A stretch of 22,908 nt of DNA from a virus (taxonomy: Duplodnaviria > Heunggongvirae > Uroviricota > Caudoviricetes): IMG/VR virus record IMGVR_UViG_2875703104_000003, one strand, 5' to 3'. The stretch's first letter is position 1. Every line of letters starts with the position of its first letter. This document shows, piece by piece, positions 7,362-22,908 of the stretch. Under the pieces are notes generated by a model. The model made no database searches. It was not told where the DNA came from and saw nothing but the letters and a program-made list of their open reading frames with translations. The translations under genes and the position numbers were made by a program.

Positions 7362-7505
7362 TTAGTGAATGCTTTTGCTTGATCTCAGTTTCAGTATTAA
7401 TATCCATTTTTTATAAGCGTCGACGGCCTCACGAAACATCTTTTCATCGCCAATAAAAGTGGCGATAGTGAATTTAGTCTGGATAGCCATAATTGTTTGA
7501 TCCAT
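7362..7505 (-). CDS. kil: Kil host-killing protein (FtsZ inhibitor)
   Basis: Internal ATG of the 89-aa track ORF gives 47 aa '[47 protein letters not shown]', matching lambda Kil. Overlaps the cIII 3' end as in lambda. Confidence 0.8.
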
Positions 7506-8675: not shown

Positions 8676-9257
8676 ATGAACAACTCATGGTGGCAGGAAC
8701 TAATGCATTTTTTCCTGCAAGGAATGACACTTAAACAGTTGATTCATATGCTAATCATCCTGATCATATTGATTATTGTTATGCCGGTAAGCGTAAAAGA
8801 ATGGATAAACCTGCATAGTCCAGAAATCCTTCCTCATTACTGGATGTATTACATCCTGTTGTTTTGCGTTAGCTATGTGCTTAACGGCGTTGTTAATTCC
8901 GCTTATCACGCTGTGACTGAAAGAATTGAGGTATTCGCTGCTCAGAAGCGCAAATCTAAAGAAGAAAAATATGTGCAAGATTTGTTTGATTCGTTAACTC
9001 TTGGAGAAAGAGCGTATTTGGCATTCGCTGTAGCCGCTAATAACCAGCTACAAACGGAAAAGGGCGCTCATGAATCAATTTCATTGCTCAAAAAAGGACT
9101 CCTCGTTCGAAGGCCTCCTGCTGTTGGATATCCTGATACCGACCGTTTCGTTATCCCTGAAAGCTATAGACATGAGTGCTACATTAGGTTTGCCGGGAAG
9201 GCAGACAGCCTTATGGATGAACTTATCGCTCAGGATAAGCATGGCAAAAACAAGTAA
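8676..9257 (+). CDS. sieB: SieB superinfection exclusion protein
   Basis: 193 aa, 'MNNSWWQELMHFFLQGMTLKQLIHMLIILIILIIVMPVSVKEW...' with an N-terminal hydrophobic segment; matches lambda SieB. Opposite orientation to the left operon, as in lambda. Confidence 0.85.
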   Translation: MNNSWWQELMHFFLQGMTLKQLIHMLIILIILIIVMPVSVKEWINLHSPEILPHYWMYYILLFCVSYVLNGVVNSAYHAVTERIEVFAAQKRKSKEEKYVQDLFDSLTLGERAYLAFAVAANNQLQTEKGAHESISLLKKGLLVRRPPAVGYPDTDRFVIPESYRHECYIRFAGKADSLMDELIAQDKHGKNK

Positions 9258-14743: not shown

Positions 14744-15184
14744 ATGAAAAAACTAACCTTTGAAATTCGATCTCCGGCACATCAGCAAAACGCTATTCAC
14801 GCAGTACAGCAAATCCTTCCAGACCCAACCAAACCAATCGTAGTAACCATTCAGGAACGCAACCGCAGCTTAGACCAAAACAGGAAGCTATGGGCCTGCT
14901 TAGGTGACGTCTCTCGTCAGGTTGAATGGCATGGTCGCTGGCTGGATGCAGAAAGCTGGAAGTGTGTGTTTACCGCAGCATTAAAGCAGCAGGATGTTGT
15001 TCCTAACCTTGCCGGGAATGGCTTTGTGGTAATAGGCCAGTCAACCAGCAGGATGCGTGTAAGCGAATTTGCGGAGCTATTAGAGCTTATACAGGCATTC
15101 GGTACAGAGCGTGGCGTTAAGTGGTCAGACGAAGCGCGACTGGCTCTCGAATGGAAAGCGCGATGGGGAGATCGGGCTGCATGA
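14744..15184 (+). CDS. ninB: NinB recombination protein
   Basis: ATG at 14744 with GAGGGAAG RBS; 146 aa 'MKKLTFEIRSPAHQQNAIHAVQQILPDPTKPIVVTIQERNRSLDQNRKLWACLGDVSRQVEWHGRWLDAESWKCVF...' matches lambda NinB. Confidence 0.85.
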   Translation: MKKLTFEIRSPAHQQNAIHAVQQILPDPTKPIVVTIQERNRSLDQNRKLWACLGDVSRQVEWHGRWLDAESWKCVFTAALKQQDVVPNLAGNGFVVIGQSTSRMRVSEFAELLELIQAFGTERGVKWSDEARLALEWKARWGDRAA

Positions 15185-15708
15185 CTATCAAATCAAATAC
15201 GCCAGCACACGACAAGGACTGCTGGCAAACGCCGCTTTGGCTTTTTGATGCACTGGATATTGAGTTTGGATTCTGGCTGGATTCGGCAGCGAGCGACAAA
15301 AATGCTCTGTGCGCTCACTGGCTAACTGAGGACGACGACGCGCTCAATTCTGAGTGGGTAAGCCACGGTGCAATCTGGAATAACCCACCGTACAGCAATA
15401 TCAGGCCGTGGGTGGAAAAAGCCGCTGAGCAGTGTATACAACAGCGACAGACGGTAGTGATGCTTGTGCCAGAGGATATGTCTGTCGGATGGTTCAGCAA
15501 GGCTCTGGAGAGTGTTGACGAAGTTCGTATTATCACTGATGGACGGATTAATTTTATCGAACCATCGACAGGGCTGGAGAAGAAGGGAAACAGCAAAGGC
15601 TCCATGCTGCTGATTTGGCGACCGTTCATCAGTCCTCGACGGATGTTTACTACCGTATCCAAAGCGGCATTGATGGCGATCGGGCAGGGCGTCAGGAGGG
15701 CTGCATGA
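15181..15708 (+). CDS. Phage Dam-like DNA N6-adenine methyltransferase (orphan)
   Basis: ATG at 15181 overlaps the ninB stop (ATGA). 175 aa '[31 protein letters not shown]...[16 protein letters not shown]...' with the NPPY amino-methyltransferase motif. No adjacent restriction gene. Confidence 0.8.
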
Positions 15709-16931: not shown

Positions 16932-17016
16932 AGTCAGAGATAACAATCAACTAATACTGTTTTGTTGATTTTTGCTTGTAATTGGCGTTCTGGTCTGATT
17001 TTTGTGGAGTAAGTTG

Positions 17017-17550
17017 ATGCGTGATATTCAGATGGTTCTTGAGCGTTGGGGTGCGTGGGCGGCTAATAATCATGAAGATGTGACCTGGTCGTCCATTGCC
17101 GCCGGTTTTAAGGGATTAATTCCTTCAAAAGTAAAATCTCGCCCGCAATGTTGTGACGATGACGCGATGATCATTTGCGGGTGCATGGCCCGTCTGAAAA
17201 AGAACAACAGCGATTTACACGATTTATTAGTAGANNNNNNNNNNNNNNNNNNNNNTTTTAAGGGATTAATTCCTTCAAAAGTAAAATCTCGCCCGCAATG
17301 TTGTGACGATGACGCGATGATCATTTGCGGGTGCATGGCCCGTCTGAAAAAGAACAACAGCGATTTACACGATTTATTAGTAGATTATTATGTATGTGGT
17401 ATGACATTCATGTCACTGGCAAGTAAGCATTGCTGCTCGGATGGTTATATCGGGAAAAGGTTACAGAAGGCTGAGGGCATAATTGAAGGGATGTTAATGG
17501 CATTAGATATCCGGTTAGATATGGATATCGTTGCTAATAATTCTAATTGA
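17017..17550 (+). CDS. Q: Late-gene antiterminator Q (phage 82 / QuuD type); length inflated by an assembly duplication
   Basis: ATG at 17017 with GGAG RBS. '[76 protein letters not shown]...[14 protein letters not shown]' matches QuuD-type Q. The CDS contains the 21-N run 17235..17255 flanked by a duplicated block of about 129 bp; the real gene is about 127 codons. Confidence 0.85.
17235..17255. other. Assembly spacer (21 N) flanked by a duplicated block of about 129 bp
   Basis: 17106..17234 is repeated exactly at 17256..17384. Confidence 0.9.
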
Positions 17551-17691
17551 TATGCAATTGTTTACTAAAAGTTATTAAAAATGGGGCGTGGAAACGCCCC
17601 CAAAATAAAGGGTAATATATAACAGAAGGTTTATATAGTAAGAAGCAAGGTAGTGCTTCTAAAGGAAGTGGCTTGAGGGCTCCACTTATAT
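17551..17691 (+). promoter_or_regulatory. Probable pR' late promoter / Q-utilisation region with structured leader
   Basis: AT-rich sequence immediately after Q with hairpins GGGGCGT-GGAA-ACGCCCC (about 17583..17600) and GAAGC-AAGGTAGT-GCTTC (about 17642..17659), followed by the terminator at 17692. Placement is by analogy to lambda pR'-qut-tR'; -10/-35 elements not resolved. Confidence 0.4.
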
Positions 17692-17727
17692 GTTGCGGAG
17701 GCAAAGCCTCCCGCAACATATCTTTTT
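17692..17727 (+). terminator. Rho-independent terminator (tR'-like)
   Basis: Stem GTTGCGGAGG / CCTCCCGCAAC with loop CAAAG, followed by ATATCTTTTT. Lies between Q and the 3' end of the convergent porin gene. Confidence 0.6.
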
Positions 17728-17738
17728 CGTAAGTCAGA

Positions 17739-18821
17739 TTAGAACTGATAAACCAGACCTACAGCGACGATGTCGTCGGTATCAATACCAGCTGTTTTGG
17801 TAAACTTACTATCGTCAATTAAGTTGATTTTGTAATCAACAAAAGTGGACATGTTTTTATTAAAGTAGTAAGTAGCACCGACATCGACATACTTGACTAA
17901 GTCTCGGTCACCATGAACACCAAGGTCTTTACCTTTTGACTGAAGGTAAGCAACAGATGGNCGCAGACCGAAGTCAAACTGATATTGTGCTACTGCTTCA
18001 AAGTTTTGTGCTTTGTTTGCAATATGGTTATTANCAAAAACGGTCATATTCTGAGTTTCAGAATATGTGGTAGCCAGATAGATATTGTTCGCATCATATT
18101 TCAGGCCTGCAGCCCATACTTCCGCATTTTTGCCGGAGGCATTGAATTTGCTCTTACCATAGGCGACCTGACCGTCAGTGCGATCTGATTTAGCATAGGT
18201 TGCACCCACGCCGAATCCTTCATACTCATAAGTAGTGGAGAAACCGAAACCATCACCATTGGCTTCAGTTACGTCAGTGCGGTCATTTTTACCCTGATAC
18301 TGAGCAGCAAAGTTCAGGCCATCGACCAGACCAAAGAAGTCGTTGTTACGATAAGTTGCAACACCAGTAGTGCGACCAGTCATGAACACATCTGTTTGGG
18401 TCCAGGTATCACCACCGAATTCTGGCAGNACGTCAGTCCACGCACCGATGTCGTATGCTACACCGTAGTTACGGCCGTAATCGATTGAGCCGTAATCACC
18501 AAATTTCAGGCCTGCAAATGCAAGACGGGTTTTGTCTTTGGAAGAACCTTGAGATTCAGCACGGTTGCCTTTGAATTCATATTCCCACTGACCGAAACCA
18601 GTCAGTTGATCGTTGATTTGGGTTTCACCTTTGAAGCCAAGACGGGCATAAGTAGTATCACCATCATCTGCATCATTAGAGGAGAAGTAGTGCTTGGCAT
18701 TAACTTTCCCGTATAGATCCAGCTTGTTACTGTCTTTATTATAAATTTCAGCTGCCTGAGCAGACATCGCCATCAGTACTGATGCAGCTACAGCAGAAAT
18801 TGCCACTGTTAATTTTTTCAT
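17739..18821 (-). CDS. nmpC: Outer-membrane general porin, NmpC/OmpD-like (prophage cargo)
   Basis: 360 aa with signal peptide '[23 protein letters not shown]', '[24 protein letters not shown]...' and C-terminal '...VGLVYQF'. Matches NmpC from memory. Contains 3 single-N base calls (17961, 18034, 18429). Convergent with Q. Confidence 0.9.
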
Positions 18822-18837: not shown

Positions 18838-18937
18838 NNNNNNNNNNNNNNNNNNNNNNNNNNNNNNNNNNNNNNNNNNNNNNNNNNNNNNNNNNNNNNN
18901 NNNNNNNNNNNNNNNNNNNNNNNNNNNNNNNNNNNNN
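18838..18937. other. Scaffold gap (100 N) with no flanking duplication
   Basis: Run of exactly 100 N. Left flank is 16 nt upstream of the porin start; right flank is the interior of a tail-fiber gene. Unknown length of sequence is missing. Confidence 0.95.
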
Positions 18938-21031
18938 GGCGCCATGACGGAAGATGATGTCATGCCGGAGGCACTGCGCCGTTTTGAGCTGATGGTGAAT
19001 GAAGTGGCACGTCATGCCGGAGCATCATCACAGAGCGCAGCGGCAGCAAAGAAATCCGAAACTGCTGCGGCATCATCGAAGAACGCGGCGAAAACCTCAG
19101 AAACGAATGCAGCTAACAGCGCACAGGCGGCAGCGGCCTCGCAGACTGCATCGGCAAACTCCGCGACAGCAGCCAAAAAATCAGAAACCAGCGCGAAAAA
19201 CAGCGAGACAGCCACAAAGGCCAGCGAAAAAAACGCAAAATCCAGCCAGACGGCAGCGAAAACCAGTGAGACGAATGCCAAAGACAGTGAAGCCAACGCA
19301 AAGGTGAGCGAAACAGCGGCGGCGAACTCGGCGAAAGCATCGGCAGCAAGCCAGACGGCAGCAAAAGCAAGTGAAGATGCTGCCAGAGAATACGCAAACC
19401 AGACAGCAGAGCCGTACAGATATGTTTTACAGCCGCTGCCGGATGTGTGGATACCCTTTAATGATTCGCTGGATATGATTACGGGCTATTCTCCGGGTTA
19501 TAAAAAAGTGAAGATTGGTGATAATGTGGTTCAGGTTGCCAGTGATAAACAGGTTAATTTCAGTCGCGCATCAACGGCAACATATATCAACAAATCTGGC
19601 GAACTGAAAACGGCGGAAATTAATGAGCCACGATTTGAGTGTGATGGCCTGCTTATTGAGGGGCAAAGAACGAACTTCTTCCCGAACAGTACAGACCCTT
19701 CGAAGTGGAATAAGTCAACTTCACTGGACGTTACAGAAACAGGCACAGATAGTTTCGGGTTTAATTATGGCCGGTTTGTCGTACAGGATTCGATTGTTGG
19801 TACAAGTAAAGCGCATACCATTATCGGACTGTATTCGAGTACCGGAGGGGTTGATACTTCAGGGGACGAAAAGCATGTAACTATATCCTGTCGGGTAAAA
19901 AGTGAAGTTGATAATATCGCCGTTCGTATTTTATTTGAACATTATGATGGGGAGGTAAGGACATCAATAGGAGCAGCAAACCTGAACCTTACCACCCGCA
20001 TAATTAGCAAGACAGGTCAGACAAGCCGTGTTACAGCAAGGTCTGTTAAGGATGATGCAACTGGCTGGATATTTTTTGAGGCTACATTAAAAGCAGATAC
20101 AACAGAAAATACGGTTGGTGGTTTTGTCCAGTATTCTCCGGATACAGGNNNNNNNNNNNNNNNNNNNNNGACAAGCCGTGTTACAGCAAGGTCTGTTAAG
20201 GATGATGCAACTGGCTGGATATTTTTTGAGGCTACATTAAAAGCAGATACAACAGAAAATACGGTTGGTGGTTTTGTCCAGTATTCTCCGGATACAGGGC
20301 AGATGGTTACATCAGGGGATTATCTCGATGTAACCACTCCACAGATTGAGGCTGGTACAGGCGCATCATCTTTTATTGTTACGGGGACGGCACCGGCAAC
20401 GCGGGCAAGCGATATGGTGACAGTCCCAATCAAGAATAACCTTTATAATCTTCCTTTTACGGTTCTTTGTGAGGTACATAAGAACTGGTATAAAACGCCA
20501 AATGTAGCGCCGCGTGTTTTTGATACCGGCGGTCATCAAACCGGAGCGGGGATCGTAATGGGGTTTGGTTCATCAGGTGGGTACGACGGTTTTCCGTATT
20601 GCGATATAGGTGGTTCAGACCGACGAATAAATGAAAATGCCGGGCTGGAAAAAATGCTTATTGGTATGCGGGTAAAGTCCGAACGGTCCACATGTGTAGT
20701 CAGTAACGGTAAGTTAAGCAGCGAAACTAAAACCAAATGGGNNNNNNNNNNNNNNNNNNNNNGTTCAGACCGACGAATAAATGAAAATGCCGGGCTGGAA
20801 AAAATGCTTATTGGTATGCGGGTAAAGTCCGAACGGTCCACATGTGTAGTCAGTAACGGTAAGTTAAGCAGCGAAACTAAAACCAAATGGGAATATATCC
20901 GGAGTACAGCAACCATTCGCATTGGTGGACAAACTACAGCAGGATTACGCCATTTATTTGGGCATGTGAGGAATTTTCGTCTCTGGCATAAAGAGCTAAC
21001 AGATGCGCAGCTTGGGGAGGTTGTGGAGTGA
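18938..21031 (+). CDS. stf: Side tail fiber protein (Stf-like), 5'-truncated by the scaffold gap; contains two assembly duplications
   Basis: 'AMTEDDVMPEALRRFELMVNEVARHA' parallels lambda Stf 'AMTEDDARPEVLRRLELMVEEVARNA' (about residue 100 of Stf), followed by the typical K/S/E/T/A-rich repeats (AAKKSETAAASSKNAAKTSETNA...). The C-terminal half differs from lambda Stf. Contains the N runs 20149..20169 and 20742..20762 with flanking duplications. Confidence 0.8.
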   Translation, partial: GAMTEDDVMPEALRRFELMVNEVARHAGASSQSAAAAKKSETAAASSKNAAKTSETNAANSAQAAAASQTASANSATAAKKSETSAKNSETATKASEKNAKSSQTAAKTSETNAKDSEANAKVSETAAANSAKASAASQTAAKASEDAAREYANQTAEPYRYVLQPLPDVWIPFNDSLDMITGYSPGYKKVKIGDNVVQVASDKQVNFSRASTATYINKSGELKTAEINEPRFECDGLLIEGQRTNFFPNSTDPSKWNKSTSLDVTETGTDSFGFNYGRFVVQDSIVGTSKAHTIIGLYSSTGGVDTSGDEKHVTISCRVKSEVDNIAVRILFEHYDGEVRTSIGAANLNLTTRIISKTGQTSRVTARSVKDDATGWIFFEATLKADTTENTVGGFVQYSPDTXXXXXXXXTSRVTARSVKDDATGWIFFEATLKADTTENTVGGFVQYSPDTGQMVTSGDYLDVTTPQIEAGTGASSFIVTGTAPATRASDMVTVPIKNNLYNLPFTVLCEVHKNWYKTPNVAPRVFDTGGHQTGAGIVMGFGSSGGYDGFPYCDIGGSDRRINENAGLEKMLIGMRVKSERSTCVVSNGKLSSETKTKWXXXXXXXXSDRRINENAGLEKMLIGMRVKSERSTCVVSNGKLSSETKTKWEYIRSTATIRIGGQTTAGLRHLFGHVRNFRLWHKELTDAQLGEVVE
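20149..20169. other. Assembly spacer (21 N) flanked by a duplicated block
   Basis: About 20020..20148 is repeated exactly at 20170..20298. Confidence 0.9.
20742..20762. other. Assembly spacer (21 N) flanked by a duplicated block
   Basis: The sequence before the N run (ending ...AACCAAATGGG) recurs after it (GTTCAGACCGACG...AACCAAATGGG). Confidence 0.9.
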
Positions 21032-21456
21032 GAGATTTCACGTTGCGTTTCAGTGATAAAGCAGATTTCAGGGCATTTCTCAGGAAACTTAACTGGGAAG
21101 AGGACGAAGAGCTGCAGAATGCCGTTCTGGTTGATGAGATTGGTTTTACGTTCAGGGAGACAGATGTTTCTGATGACGGAGAACCAGAATACACGCGAAA
21201 CGAAGGGTACTTTGTTAATATCCGTCTTCTTGACGNNNNNNNNNNNNNNNNNNNNNAAGAGCTGCAGAATGCCGTTCTGGTTGATGAGATTGGTTTTACG
21301 TTCAGGGAGACAGATGTTTCTGATGACGGAGAACCAGAATACACGCGAAACGAAGGGTACTTTGTTAATATCCGTCTTCTTGACGATGGATTTGAGGATT
21401 CCGTGTTCCGTGAGTGGGTGGTTACACCAGAGCGCCCGCTCAGGGAGTGGTTTTAA
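21028..21456 (+). CDS. Hypothetical small protein immediately downstream of stf (tfa position but not Tfa-like); inflated by an assembly duplication
   Basis: GTG start overlaps the stf stop (GTGA). De-duplicated product is about 92 aa: 'MRDFTLRFSDKADFRAFLRKLNWEEDEELQNAVLVDEIGFTFRETDVSDDGEPEYTRNEGYFVNIRLLDDGFEDSVFREWVVTPERPLREWF'. Acidic. Confidence 0.45.
   Translation: MRDFTLRFSDKADFRAFLRKLNWEEDEELQNAVLVDEIGFTFRETDVSDDGEPEYTRNEGYFVNIRLLDXXXXXXXXELQNAVLVDEIGFTFRETDVSDDGEPEYTRNEGYFVNIRLLDDGFEDSVFREWVVTPERPLREWF
21236..21256. other. Assembly spacer (21 N) flanked by a duplicated block
   Basis: About 21109..21235 is repeated exactly after the N run. Confidence 0.9.
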
Positions 21457-21465
21457 GGATAGCAG

Positions 21466-21759
21466 ATGGATATCACGTCGATACTTCATGCGCTTTGTGC
21501 CGTGGCGGTGCAGGTACTGGCTGGTCTTTTTACCGGAAACTGGGCTTACGGGGCGATAGCCGGTTGTACGTTCTTCATTGCGCGTGAACACACCCAGGCA
21601 GAATATCGCTGGATTGAAATGTTCGGGCATGGCAAGCGGATTAACATGCCGTGGTGGGGCGGTTTTGATCCACGTGCATGGGATGTGGCAAGCCTGATGG
21701 ATTTTGCTGTGCCGGTGGTGGCGTGTCTGCTGGTCTGGCTGTTGGTTAATCGTGGGTGA
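21466..21759 (+). CDS. Hypothetical small membrane protein
   Basis: ATG at 21466 with AAGGA RBS. 97 aa with hydrophobic segments 'ILHALCAVAVQVLAGLF', 'YGAIAGCTFFIA' and 'LMDFAVPVVACLLVWLLV'. Confidence 0.5.
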   Translation: MDITSILHALCAVAVQVLAGLFTGNWAYGAIAGCTFFIAREHTQAEYRWIEMFGHGKRINMPWWGGFDPRAWDVASLMDFAVPVVACLLVWLLVNRG

Positions 21760-21768
21760 AAAAGGTGA

Positions 21769-21897
21769 GCAGTATATGCAACGAAGGAGGAAACATCATT
21801 GCTGGCGGCATGGAAGGCATGCAGGGTGTTGCTGAACCGTGTTGATACATCAACTGCACCTGATATTGAGTGGCCTACGAACCCTGTCAGGGAGTAA
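21769..21897 (+). pseudogene. tfa: Tail fiber assembly protein (Tfa) C-terminal remnant
   Basis: Hand translation: '[42 protein letters not shown]', matching the conserved Tfa C-terminus. No start codon; preceded by in-frame stops. Confidence 0.6.
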
Positions 21898-21951
21898 TCA
21901 TTGGGATTATGCCGCAGCACGTCTTAAGCAAGAACGTGCTGCGGTTGGATG

Positions 21952-22758
21952 CTATTTTTTCCCTGAAGCGGAAAACATTACTACAGTACCTTGAATCTTG
22001 GTTTTAACATTCTCGAAATGCTCTGAGAGTATATGTGTTAAGCCTTCTTCGGAATCTTTTGTGTTTGAAAAGATGCCTTTCTGATTGTAAATGCGCATCA
22101 GTTTTTGACCGAAGCTATTGTGCACAACGCCGTCANNNNNNNNNNNNNNNNNNNNNACATTCTCGAAATGCTCTGAGAGTATATGTGTTAAGCCTTCTTC
22201 GGAATCTTTTGTGTTTGAAAAGATGCCTTTCTGATTGTAAATGCGCATCAGTTTTTGACCGAAGCTATTGTGCACAACGCCGTCACCAAGAATTGTGGCT
22301 CCGTATAGAGTTCCATCGTCAGTTAAGGCCTGCGCCGCATTGCGTATTACACAGCTTTTTGTAGATATATTTCCAGGCAGGCAGTGAAGAAGGTAAAACA
22401 TGGAAATGGAATCAAATTGACCATGTAACGCCGCGGGATAAGGATCAAAAACATCATGGCTAATTTTATGTTTAATTTTTGANTCCCCAGCCCTTGTCGA
22501 TGCCGCGTTCAGGCTAGCTTCGTTCAAATCCATTAAAGATATCAGACTNCTCTCAGGTACGTGAGTAAGGTAAAACCCAGTTCCAACGCCAATATCCAGA
22601 TGGTTGTTACCTAAATGTTCCAGAAAGTGTGGAAGAAGGTGTTCCTTTGTAGGACATCCCCATGCAAGCCGATTTGATACTCCCAAAACCCACCAGTCAT
22701 AAAGCTTTAGGGTAAGTGGTGTGTAAATTTTAGCCCCATCATCTGTGTTTTTTTTCAT
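21952..22758 (-). CDS. Class I SAM-dependent methyltransferase, substrate unknown; inflated by an assembly duplication; at contig edge
   Basis: ATG at 22756-22758. Contains the SAM-binding motif 'LDIGVGTGFYL'. Contains the N run 22136..22156 with a flanking duplication and two single-N calls (22483, 22549). The track ORF reaches 22908 only because the 5' end is duplicated after the N run 22761..22781. Confidence 0.65.
   Translation of the reverse strand: MKKNTDDGAKIYTPLTLKLYDWWVLGVSNRLAWGCPTKEHLLPHFLEHLGNNHLDIGVGTGFYLTHVPEXSLISLMDLNEASLNAASTRAGXSKIKHKISHDVFDPYPAALHGQFDSISMFYLLHCLPGNISTKSCVIRNAAQALTDDGTLYGATILGDGVVHNSFGQKLMRIYNQKGIFSNTKDSEEGLTHILSEHFENXXXXXXXXDGVVHNSFGQKLMRIYNQKGIFSNTKDSEEGLTHILSEHFENVKTKIQGTVVMFSASGKK
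22136..22156. other. Assembly spacer (21 N) flanked by a duplicated block
   Basis: About 22009..22135 is repeated exactly at 22157..22283. Confidence 0.9.
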
Positions 22759-22760
22759 TA

Positions 22761-22781
22761 NNNNNNNNNNNNNNNNNNNNN
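22761..22781. other. Assembly spacer (21 N) followed by a duplicated block running to the window end
   Basis: 22632..22758 is repeated exactly at 22782..22908. Confidence 0.9.
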
Positions 22782-22908
22782 GAAGAAGGTGTTCCTTTGT
22801 AGGACATCCCCATGCAAGCCGATTTGATACTCCCAAAACCCACCAGTCATAAAGCTTTAGGGTAAGTGGTGTGTAAATTTTAGCCCCATCATCTGTGTTT
22901 TTTTTCAT

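Follow-up and report, generated by a model that had tools for sequence, protein, structure and literature searches.

A probable phage-21-type side-tail-fibre cassette, with two small conserved genes and a tfa scar, in a DLP12/lambda-like prophage

The side-tail-fibre locus analysed here lies in IMG/VR virus record IMGVR_UViG_2875703104_000003, a stretch of 22,908 nucleotides (the window) that carries a lambdoid prophage. A preliminary description made from the sequence alone had noticed that two small open reading frames (ORFs), of 92 and 97 codons (ORF92 and ORF97), stand behind the side-tail-fibre gene stf, where the gene for the tail-fibre chaperone Tfa would be expected, and that they are followed by a leftover Tfa C-terminus. 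The locus is best read, with a probability of about 0.7, as the phage-21-type side-tail-fibre module of a DLP12/lambda-like prophage, in which an exchanged cassette encodes a fibre ending in a conserved C-terminal region (StfC), a putative fibre accessory protein (ORF92) and a membrane-type protein (ORF97). The module is old, widespread and already sequenced, and represents ordinary tail-fibre mosaicism.

Both boundaries of the cassette could be mapped by comparison with the phages PhiR26_1 and lambda. All locus coordinates are window positions, and sequences were read after removal of the stitch duplications in this draft. PhiR26_1 has the same backbone and the classic arrangement, with the gene order J, lom, stf (1025 aa), tfa (194 aa), a ybcY-like methyltransferase gene, a tfa fragment, a hydrolase gene and ompT. 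In EcPF40, which contains the gene identical to the stf studied here, the order is J, lom, stf (688 aa), WP_001204582.1 (92 aa), WP_000355700.1 (97 aa), a tfa pseudogene, a class I methyltransferase gene, a second tfa fragment and potB. A blastn comparison of the two gave 89% identity up to Stf codon ~116 (EcPF40 locus position 7424, window 19012), and the similarity between the two Stf proteins was found to stop at residue 123. DNA homology is absent inside the cassette and is back, at 97.6%, exactly at the Tfa remnant (window 21778). The left boundary was placed at Stf codons ~116-123 (19012..19033, + strand), upstream of which the sequence matches classic stf-tfa lambdoid phages and downstream of which it does not. 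The right boundary is formed by the Tfa remnant (21777..21897, +), which corresponds to lambda Tfa residues 156-194 plus the stop codon and has no start codon; homology to lambda DNA starts at 21777 (Tfa codon 156) and runs past the stop through the hairpin that follows. The break at Stf codon ~116 and the return of homology at Tfa codon 156 show a true cassette exchange, as the preliminary description had suspected, in which everything from Stf codon ~116 to Tfa codon 155 was replaced.

The Tfa C-terminal tail reported earlier could also be confirmed. The remnant matches Pfam PF02413 (Caudo_TAP) with an E-value of 4.3e-11, over profile positions 101-130 of 131 only, and shares 85% identity with lambda Tfa residues 156-194. 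Just upstream of it, at 21766-21768, is a TGA in the same frame. A complete Tfa has a start codon, an N-terminal domain and a length of about 190 aa; only 39 homologous codons are present in the window, and a tblastn search with lambda Tfa against 20900-21960 in all frames detected no Tfa-like coding sequence beyond residues 156-194. By its sequence the remnant belongs to the Tfa family, yet it is a non-functional fragment, a non-coding scar. The locus thus resembles lambda stf-tfa in its late-operon position after J and lom, in the N-terminal anchor of Stf and in the retained last 39 Tfa codons and hairpin, and it differs in that the fibre is unrelated from codon ~116 and that no functional tfa is present. 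An ancestral recombination in a classic stf-tfa arrangement swapped the segment from Stf codon ~116 to Tfa codon 155, with crossover points in the conserved N-terminal anchor domain of Stf and in the conserved 3' end of tfa. One such exchange brought the foreign module into the backbone, its product then spread, and the last 39 Tfa codons and the following hairpin were left behind as the non-coding scar.

The window is a stitched draft containing six runs of 21 N, after each of which the 129 nt that precede it are repeated exactly (17235-17384, 20149-20298, 20742-20891, 21236-21385, 22136-22285 and 22761 to the end), by which the Q, stf, ORF92 and methyltransferase ORFs are lengthened. One stitch, 21236-21385, falls inside ORF92, and in the literal ORF list the first small ORF has 142 aa with X residues. 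Such visible stitching could make the two small ORFs look like the broken N-terminal part of a frameshifted Tfa, or like an assembly chimera. This explanation is given practically no weight: neither ORF matches Caudo_TAP or lambda Tfa, the tblastn search likewise found no Tfa in them, and both are full-length members of their own PHROG families and are conserved in related phages and prophages. After de-duplication the first ORF has 92 aa and is identical to RefSeq WP_001204582.1. Moreover, many complete E. coli genomes contain the de-duplicated 1006-nt locus as one contiguous stretch at 100% identity; a best match of at least 99% identity was obtained in 205 records and at least 80% coverage in 251 genomes, and the contiguous identity in finished genomes rules out a chimera or a chance pattern. 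A separate scaffold gap of 100 N (18838-18937) is all that stands between a porin gene and stf codon 92; missing from the scaffold here are the first 91 codons of stf and more or less all of the prophage's lysis and morphogenesis region.

The preliminary description had regarded the locus as remodelled. The exchange stands, but it is not particular to this locus. Phage 21, many isolated lambdoid phages and about 250 complete E. coli genomes carry the same module, and the RefSeq annotation of EcPF40 already lists the small ORFs as two hypothetical proteins and the remnant as a tfa pseudogene "missing N-terminus". The piece covering Tfa residues 156-194 follows ORF97 at a constant offset in all 38 IMG/VR loci that reach that far, among 80 loci found via ORF97, and the module with its scar was also detected in the isolated phages ev243, 2G7b and PhiR49_1. 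Phage 21 (OL657228) has the same three genes, namely a fibre of 686 aa (CPT_21_22), a 92-aa ORF overlapping its stop (CPT_21_23) and a 97-aa putative membrane protein (CPT_21_24). It differs in having neither the Tfa remnant nor the methyltransferase gene after the module, where sitDCBA is found instead, and the module can therefore sit in other backbones. In PhiR40_1 the scar is likewise missing, and the module is followed by a small DNA-damage-inducible-protein gene and int. The window by itself tells very little, as an exact copy of the module is found in hundreds of genomes.

The stf gene (18938..21031, +; stitches at 20149-20298 and 20742-20891) is visible for residues 92-688, its N-terminus being lost in the scaffold gap. 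De-duplicated, it matches EcPF40 Stf (WP_032154014.1) with 100% identity over residues 92-688; the N-terminal 91 aa are present in the EcPF40 protein. Matches were obtained to Pfam phage_tail_N (PF08400, tail end of the domain) and to phrog_1419 (E 7e-288). A domain related to the spike fibre of gene transfer agents (GTAs) occupies 19652..20407 (+; NCBIfam NF048003, GTA_spike_fiber, E 1.5e-19), and a weak but significant phmmer match (E 3e-5) was found to PDB 6TB9, the Rhodobacter gene transfer agent head spike fibre Rcc01080. The fibre thus combines the phage_tail_N anchor, the GTA_spike_fiber domain and the conserved C-terminal domain that characterise phage-21-type fibres. The C-terminal part, StfC (19409..21025, +), is a conserved region of ~440 aa that travels with ORF92 across phage lineages. 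No Pfam match to Peptidase_S74 (PF13884), an intramolecular chaperone, was found in Stf, and with no full tfa present, neither known chaperone solution is available in cis. The first part of the incoming module would accordingly be a fibre with a GTA-spike-fibre-like domain and a terminal domain, the latter galectin-like in the model of the 54%-identical gp22 of phage IrisVonRoten.

The second part of the module is ORF92 (21028..21456, +; positions 21236-21385 being the stitch artefact). Its coupling to stf was confirmed after de-duplication: the GTG start at 21028 runs into the stf stop TGA (21029-21031), so that the two together read GTGA. The protein is acidic, with an isoelectric point (pI) of 4.28 and 24 D+E against 12 K+R. 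It corresponds to full-length phrog_1361 (E 1.3e-40, residues 1-92 against profile positions 1-92 of 92), and its AlphaFold2 (AF2) model, with a predicted local distance difference test (pLDDT) score of 87.5, is a small alpha/beta sandwich. Structure searches with this model returned no informative neighbour, and neither sequence nor fold similarity to Tfa was detected with Caudo_TAP, tblastn or structure comparison. Neither small protein had a match in Pfam, in NCBIfam or, at E<=1, among the anti-phage defence profiles of PADLOC, and sequence-profile searches against the PDB with the small proteins gave nothing significant. The searches proposed earlier have thus assigned each protein to its own PHROG family, and yielded no Pfam, NCBIfam or PDB match and no informative fold neighbour.

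Homologues of ORF92 were found by tblastn in 189 phage records. In every locus examined (phage 21, PhiR40_1, IrisVonRoten, JenP1, rolling, FFH2, PhiR49_1, ev243 and P1-like elements), the fibre upstream of ORF92 shares the StfC region, its C-terminal ~430-590 aa being 40-78% identical to Stf. The ORF92 start overlaps the fibre stop (ATGA or GTGA) in the named phages except FFH2, in which it follows directly after the stop. The pairing spans Jouyvirus, lambdoids, Tequintavirus, Nonagvirus, Dhillonvirus, Vequintavirus (rV5-like) and P1-like phage-plasmids, strictly lytic phages of four lineages are included, and the order StfC-ORF92-ORF97 was observed in 80 of 80 further IMG/VR loci. Across five lineages the family aligns ungapped at 92 codons. 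Between this prophage and phage 21, neither of which encodes a distal fibre, the nonsynonymous divergence (dN) of ORF92 is 0.29 and the synonymous divergence (dS) is saturated; judged from such codon comparison, ORF92 is under purifying selection. The most conserved feature of the protein is a nearly invariant C-terminal PLREW, which has low confidence in the model, a pattern as would be expected of a docking peptide. Given this genomic context, ORF92 is most likely a fibre-specific assembly or adaptor protein, a candidate family unrelated to Tfa. As part of the incoming module it would serve as a dedicated accessory of the StfC end, either as a trimerisation or folding helper or as a junction subunit.

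In a P1-like phage-plasmid, ORF92 lies in the Cin-invertible fibre segment, behind an S protein that shares 64% identity with Stf over its last 440 aa. The segment containing StfC, ORF92, the distal fibre and Tfa was seen in opposite orientations on two P1-like phage-plasmid contigs, and on one P1-like contig ORF92 stands apart from any called fibre gene. An exhaustive profile search yielded 103 family representatives, which are small stand-alone proteins. Giant proteins with PKD or TPR repeats that came up as possible relatives were rejected as spurious, their scores being summed partial matches of 6-14 bits to 'W..D...Y.V.V..DD'. The resemblance of the PKD repeat 'IDWGDG...Y.V.V.V.DDDG' to 'LNWEEDE...YFVNIRLLDD' of ORF92 is curious and probably spurious.

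The position occupied by ORF97 in this prophage is taken in other phages by a distal fibre gene. Such a gene starts 9 nt after ORF92 in IrisVonRoten, JenP1 and PhiR49_1; rolling, the P1-like element and 32 of the 80 E. coli prophage loci found via ORF97 likewise have one next after ORF92. In IrisVonRoten (Bas32, a Tequintavirus), gp22 shares 54% identity with Stf across about 585 aa, and gp23 (92 aa) is the ORF92 homologue, joined to it by an ATGA overlap. In contrast to the window prophage, which has ORF97 in that slot, IrisVonRoten encodes the distal fibre gp24 and has no ORF97. The BASEL authors model gp22 as a proximal fibre whose C-terminal domain is galectin-like and to which the T-shaped distal gp24 docks (bioRxiv 10.1101/2024.09.12.612763). 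The distal fibres all start with the 15-residue motif M-[AV]-T-x-T-x-IP-x-DI-x-x-LK, with examples from five phage lineages including MVTKTVIPTDITKLK, MATSTVIPDDIKTLK and MATVTTIPADITNLK. Their bodies are unrelated, comprising a T-shaped Gp12-like fibre, an endosialidase-like protein and a Gp34_trimer protein followed by Tfa. The shared N-terminal motif looks like a common docking peptide, and the gene context suggests that StfC and ORF92 may form a conserved unit able to carry exchangeable distal fibres. The branched LtfA/LtfB fibres of the T5-like phage DT57C are alike in concept, in that a proximal fibre carries a separately encoded distal fibre; ltfA and ltfB encode consecutive gene products (gp108 and gp107), and no small gene is listed between them (PMC10713586, PMC4728585).

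A broader proposal is tentative and falls somewhat short of even odds. StfC and ORF92 would form a universal "socket", shared by siphoviruses, myoviruses and phage-plasmids, into which distal fibres plug by the 15-residue peptide; ORF92 would represent a new, Tfa-unrelated assembly or adaptor family required for the socket, and ORF97 a new inner-membrane family that travels with receptor-binding genes and protects the lysogen or the infected cell. A related alternative holds that ORF92 is not a departing chaperone but a structural junction subunit at the distal end of StfC, a "knee-cap" in a position like that of T4 gp35, which offers the docking site for the distal fibre peptide. It would fit the location of ORF92, which in T5-like phages, Nonagvirus, Dhillonvirus, P1-like and some lambdoid phages stands precisely between the proximal and the distal fibre gene, at a constant distance of 9 nt from the latter. 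It would also fit the fact that the distal fibres bring their own chaperones, either a Peptidase_S74-like C-terminus (assigned in PhiR49_1 from a sequence motif) or a Tfa gene, and have only the N-terminal motif in common. On the other hand, ORF92 is intact and under apparent purifying selection where no distal fibre exists, as in phage 21, PhiR40_1, this prophage and 48 of the 80 loci, and gp24 was modelled as docking onto gp22, the 92-aa product not being discussed (bioRxiv 10.1101/2024.09.12.612763). The junction-subunit alternative is considered rather unlikely. Because ORF92 is kept intact in the phages that have no distal fibre, a role for the proximal fibre itself is favoured.

The third part of the module, ORF97 (21466..21759, +), begins 9 nt after ORF92 and encodes a hydrophobic, three-helix protein, whose membrane type had been noted before. 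Its AF2 model (pLDDT 95) consists of three long helices at residues 4-23, 26-53 and 74-96, and the protein corresponds to full-length phrog_1443 (E 6e-58). Among the family, for which 571 homologues were collected, none with a Pfam domain, 22 positions are invariant, including H8, Q16, REHTQAEYRW, MPWWGGF and D79, and all of them are present in the window protein. Compared with phage 21, ORF97 is 93% identical, whereas ORF92 is 62-64% and Stf 54% identical, which indicates that ORF97 does not co-evolve with the fibre. None of the 158 E. coli StfC loci that extend far enough lacks it. In the incoming module it would be a conserved inner-membrane-type protein, probably co-transcribed at the end of the late operon.

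Homologues of ORF97 were found beside a wide range of host-recognition genes: after the tail fibre gene of Uetakevirus phiv142-3, after a giant GpJ gene in a Comamonas prophage, between two tailspike genes in a Salmonella prophage, and, in HP1-like prophages with S74 or Phage_tail_fib fibres, overlapping the fibre stop in Aeromonas salmonicida and abutting the fibre gene in Leclercia. In phiHAP-1 the homologue follows tfa, in what we take to be the position used by Z/fun in P2. This spread beside unrelated receptor-binding genes rules out a role specific to one fibre type, and points to a general function directed at the envelope, for which linkage to host-recognition genes would be of advantage. 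With low confidence, superinfection exclusion or receptor masking is proposed for ORF97, rather than fibre assembly; it may also be purely a passenger, or have a lysis-related role. By its context ORF97 is not a holin, which would be encoded beside an endolysin gene in the lysis cassette and have a charged C-terminal tail: the gene lies at the end of the tail operon and not in the lysis region, and the C-terminus reads ...LLVNRG. Only in phiv142-3 is the homologue near lysis genes, and a separate holin is annotated there. One homologue, 55% identical, stands alone in a non-prophage chromosomal neighbourhood of Aeromonas rivipollensis (CP149130.1), next to genes for a pirin, a RIO1 kinase, two lipid A acyltransferases and DNA polymerase II. 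The cluster to which it belongs has 22 member sequences, and in that species the gene may belong to the cell's own resident set.

Known small genes for membrane proteins or lipoproteins that accompany receptor-binding genes include llp of T5, cor of phi80, N15 and HK022, and Z/fun of P2. ORF97 is comparable to these in being small, predicted to be envelope-located and placed beside host-recognition genes in many temperate phages. It differs in having no known sequence relationship to them and no lipobox or signal-peptide lipoprotein features, and in lacking a link to any single receptor specificity. Morons are known to sit at the 3' flanks of fibre genes, as exemplified by Z/fun between G and FI in P2 and by cor after the tail genes in phi80 and N15. 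Both small ORFs could accordingly be passenger genes gathered at the recombination-prone 3' flank of receptor-binding genes, a view to which the Z/fun-like placement in phiHAP-1, the solitary Aeromonas homologue and the independent evolution of ORF97 would lend some support. For ORF92, this is contradicted by its occurrence in strictly lytic phages from four lineages, by its constant pairing with the same C-terminal region of the fibre, by the nearly constant overlap and by the rough co-divergence with the fibre. Moreover, a simple consensus scan of 20900-22100, which is weak evidence, found no sigma-70-like promoter upstream of ORF92 or ORF97. That both genes are mere passengers is regarded as improbable. 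After ORF97, a hairpin comes only beyond the Tfa scar. The earlier proposal that ORF97 is a moron was only partly upheld: its independent evolution and its occurrence outside prophages agree with it, whereas the failure to detect a promoter of its own, the overlap with or abutment to fibre genes and its presence at 158 of 158 loci do not.

Several observations weigh against the assignment of ORF92 as fibre accessory and ORF97 as envelope protein. No ORF92-fibre fusion was found among the 103 family representatives, the ORF92 homologue of FFH2 has no PLREW tail, and the presumed physical link between ORF92 and the fibre is drawn from gene context. In P1-like elements a Tfa gene is still found in the same module as ORF92, following the distal fibre, so ORF92 is not simply "the thing that replaces Tfa". 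ORF97, for its part, has no Pfam, NCBIfam or PADLOC match, and its fold matches are to generic helical proteins only. In addition, its fixed presence and its overlap with or abutment to HP1-like fibre genes would fit a fibre role as well as a passenger. The functional ideas of the preliminary description were reasonable, and its link between the 92-aa protein and the fibre is supported by context. "Replacement chaperone", however, overstates what is known, as the protein has no similarity to Tfa and coexists with Tfa in P1-like elements.

The roles of the two small families are unrecorded in the literature searched. Publications on the fibre genes of phage 21, on DT57C, Gifsy-1 and rV5, and on the Stf engineering by Eligo contained no statement on either small protein. 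The rV5 virion proteome is not informative for ORF92 because rV5 gp41 ends in an endosialidase-like domain. When fibres are swapped between lambdoid or T5-like phages, or used for retargeting phages and packaged cosmids, it needs to be known which neighbouring genes must travel along. The context data argue that constructs with StfC-type fibres should include the 92-aa gene and that Tfa is irrelevant to such a fibre. The conserved N-terminal "plug" motif shared by the distal fibres points to a simple way in which new receptor-binding proteins might be attached, and ORF97 represents a very conserved family that keeps company with receptor-binding genes.

Downstream of the scar, a hairpin (21911-21944) with a T-run (21955-21960; whole feature 21911..21960, +) sits between the convergent late operon and methyltransferase gene and is conserved with the region downstream of lambda tfa. 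With a folding energy of -28.5 kcal/mol (z -4.05), it is likely to be a terminator; a simple terminator scan of 20900-22100 did not call it, and it emerged from the lambda alignment and folding. The gene for a YbcY-like class I S-adenosylmethionine (SAM)-dependent methyltransferase (21952..22908, - strand; stitches at 22136-22285 and from 22761) is convergent with the late operon and runs off the window end. It is annotated likewise in EcPF40, ev243, PhiR49_1 and PhiR26_1, and is conserved backbone outside the cassette. RefSeq also places a 45-aa "nucleocapsid protein" (WP_071591511.1, window 21870-22007, +) across the Tfa scar, the hairpin and the methyltransferase gene end; this call seems to be spurious and its name misleading.

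Elsewhere the window has the genes of a lambdoid prophage, namely those for an integrase, SieB, a cI-like repressor, O, P and Dam, followed by the porin gene beside the gap. The prophage has the layout of DLP12, with an opposite-strand porin gene at the end of the early region (window 17002-18821, of which we read 17002-17550 as a Q-like antiterminator) and, at the right end, the 3' end of tfa, the ybcY-like methyltransferase gene and a second tfa fragment (window 21777-22908). In K-12 MG1655 (577000-586000), the cryptic DLP12 keeps tfaD, ybcY (a pseudogene), tfaX, appY and ompT in the same order, and these genes look like relics of the same backbone. In the early region, a SieB-like exclusion protein (8676-9257, +), a Dam-family methyltransferase (15121-15708, +) and a protein of the dATP/dGTP pyrophosphohydrolase family (2051-2791, -) are encoded. 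Many IMG/VR prophage predictions stop exactly 3 nt past the ORF97 stop, which suggests that the IMG/VR pipeline sets the prophage border there and cuts off the Tfa scar, the methyltransferase gene and the ompT-side genes.

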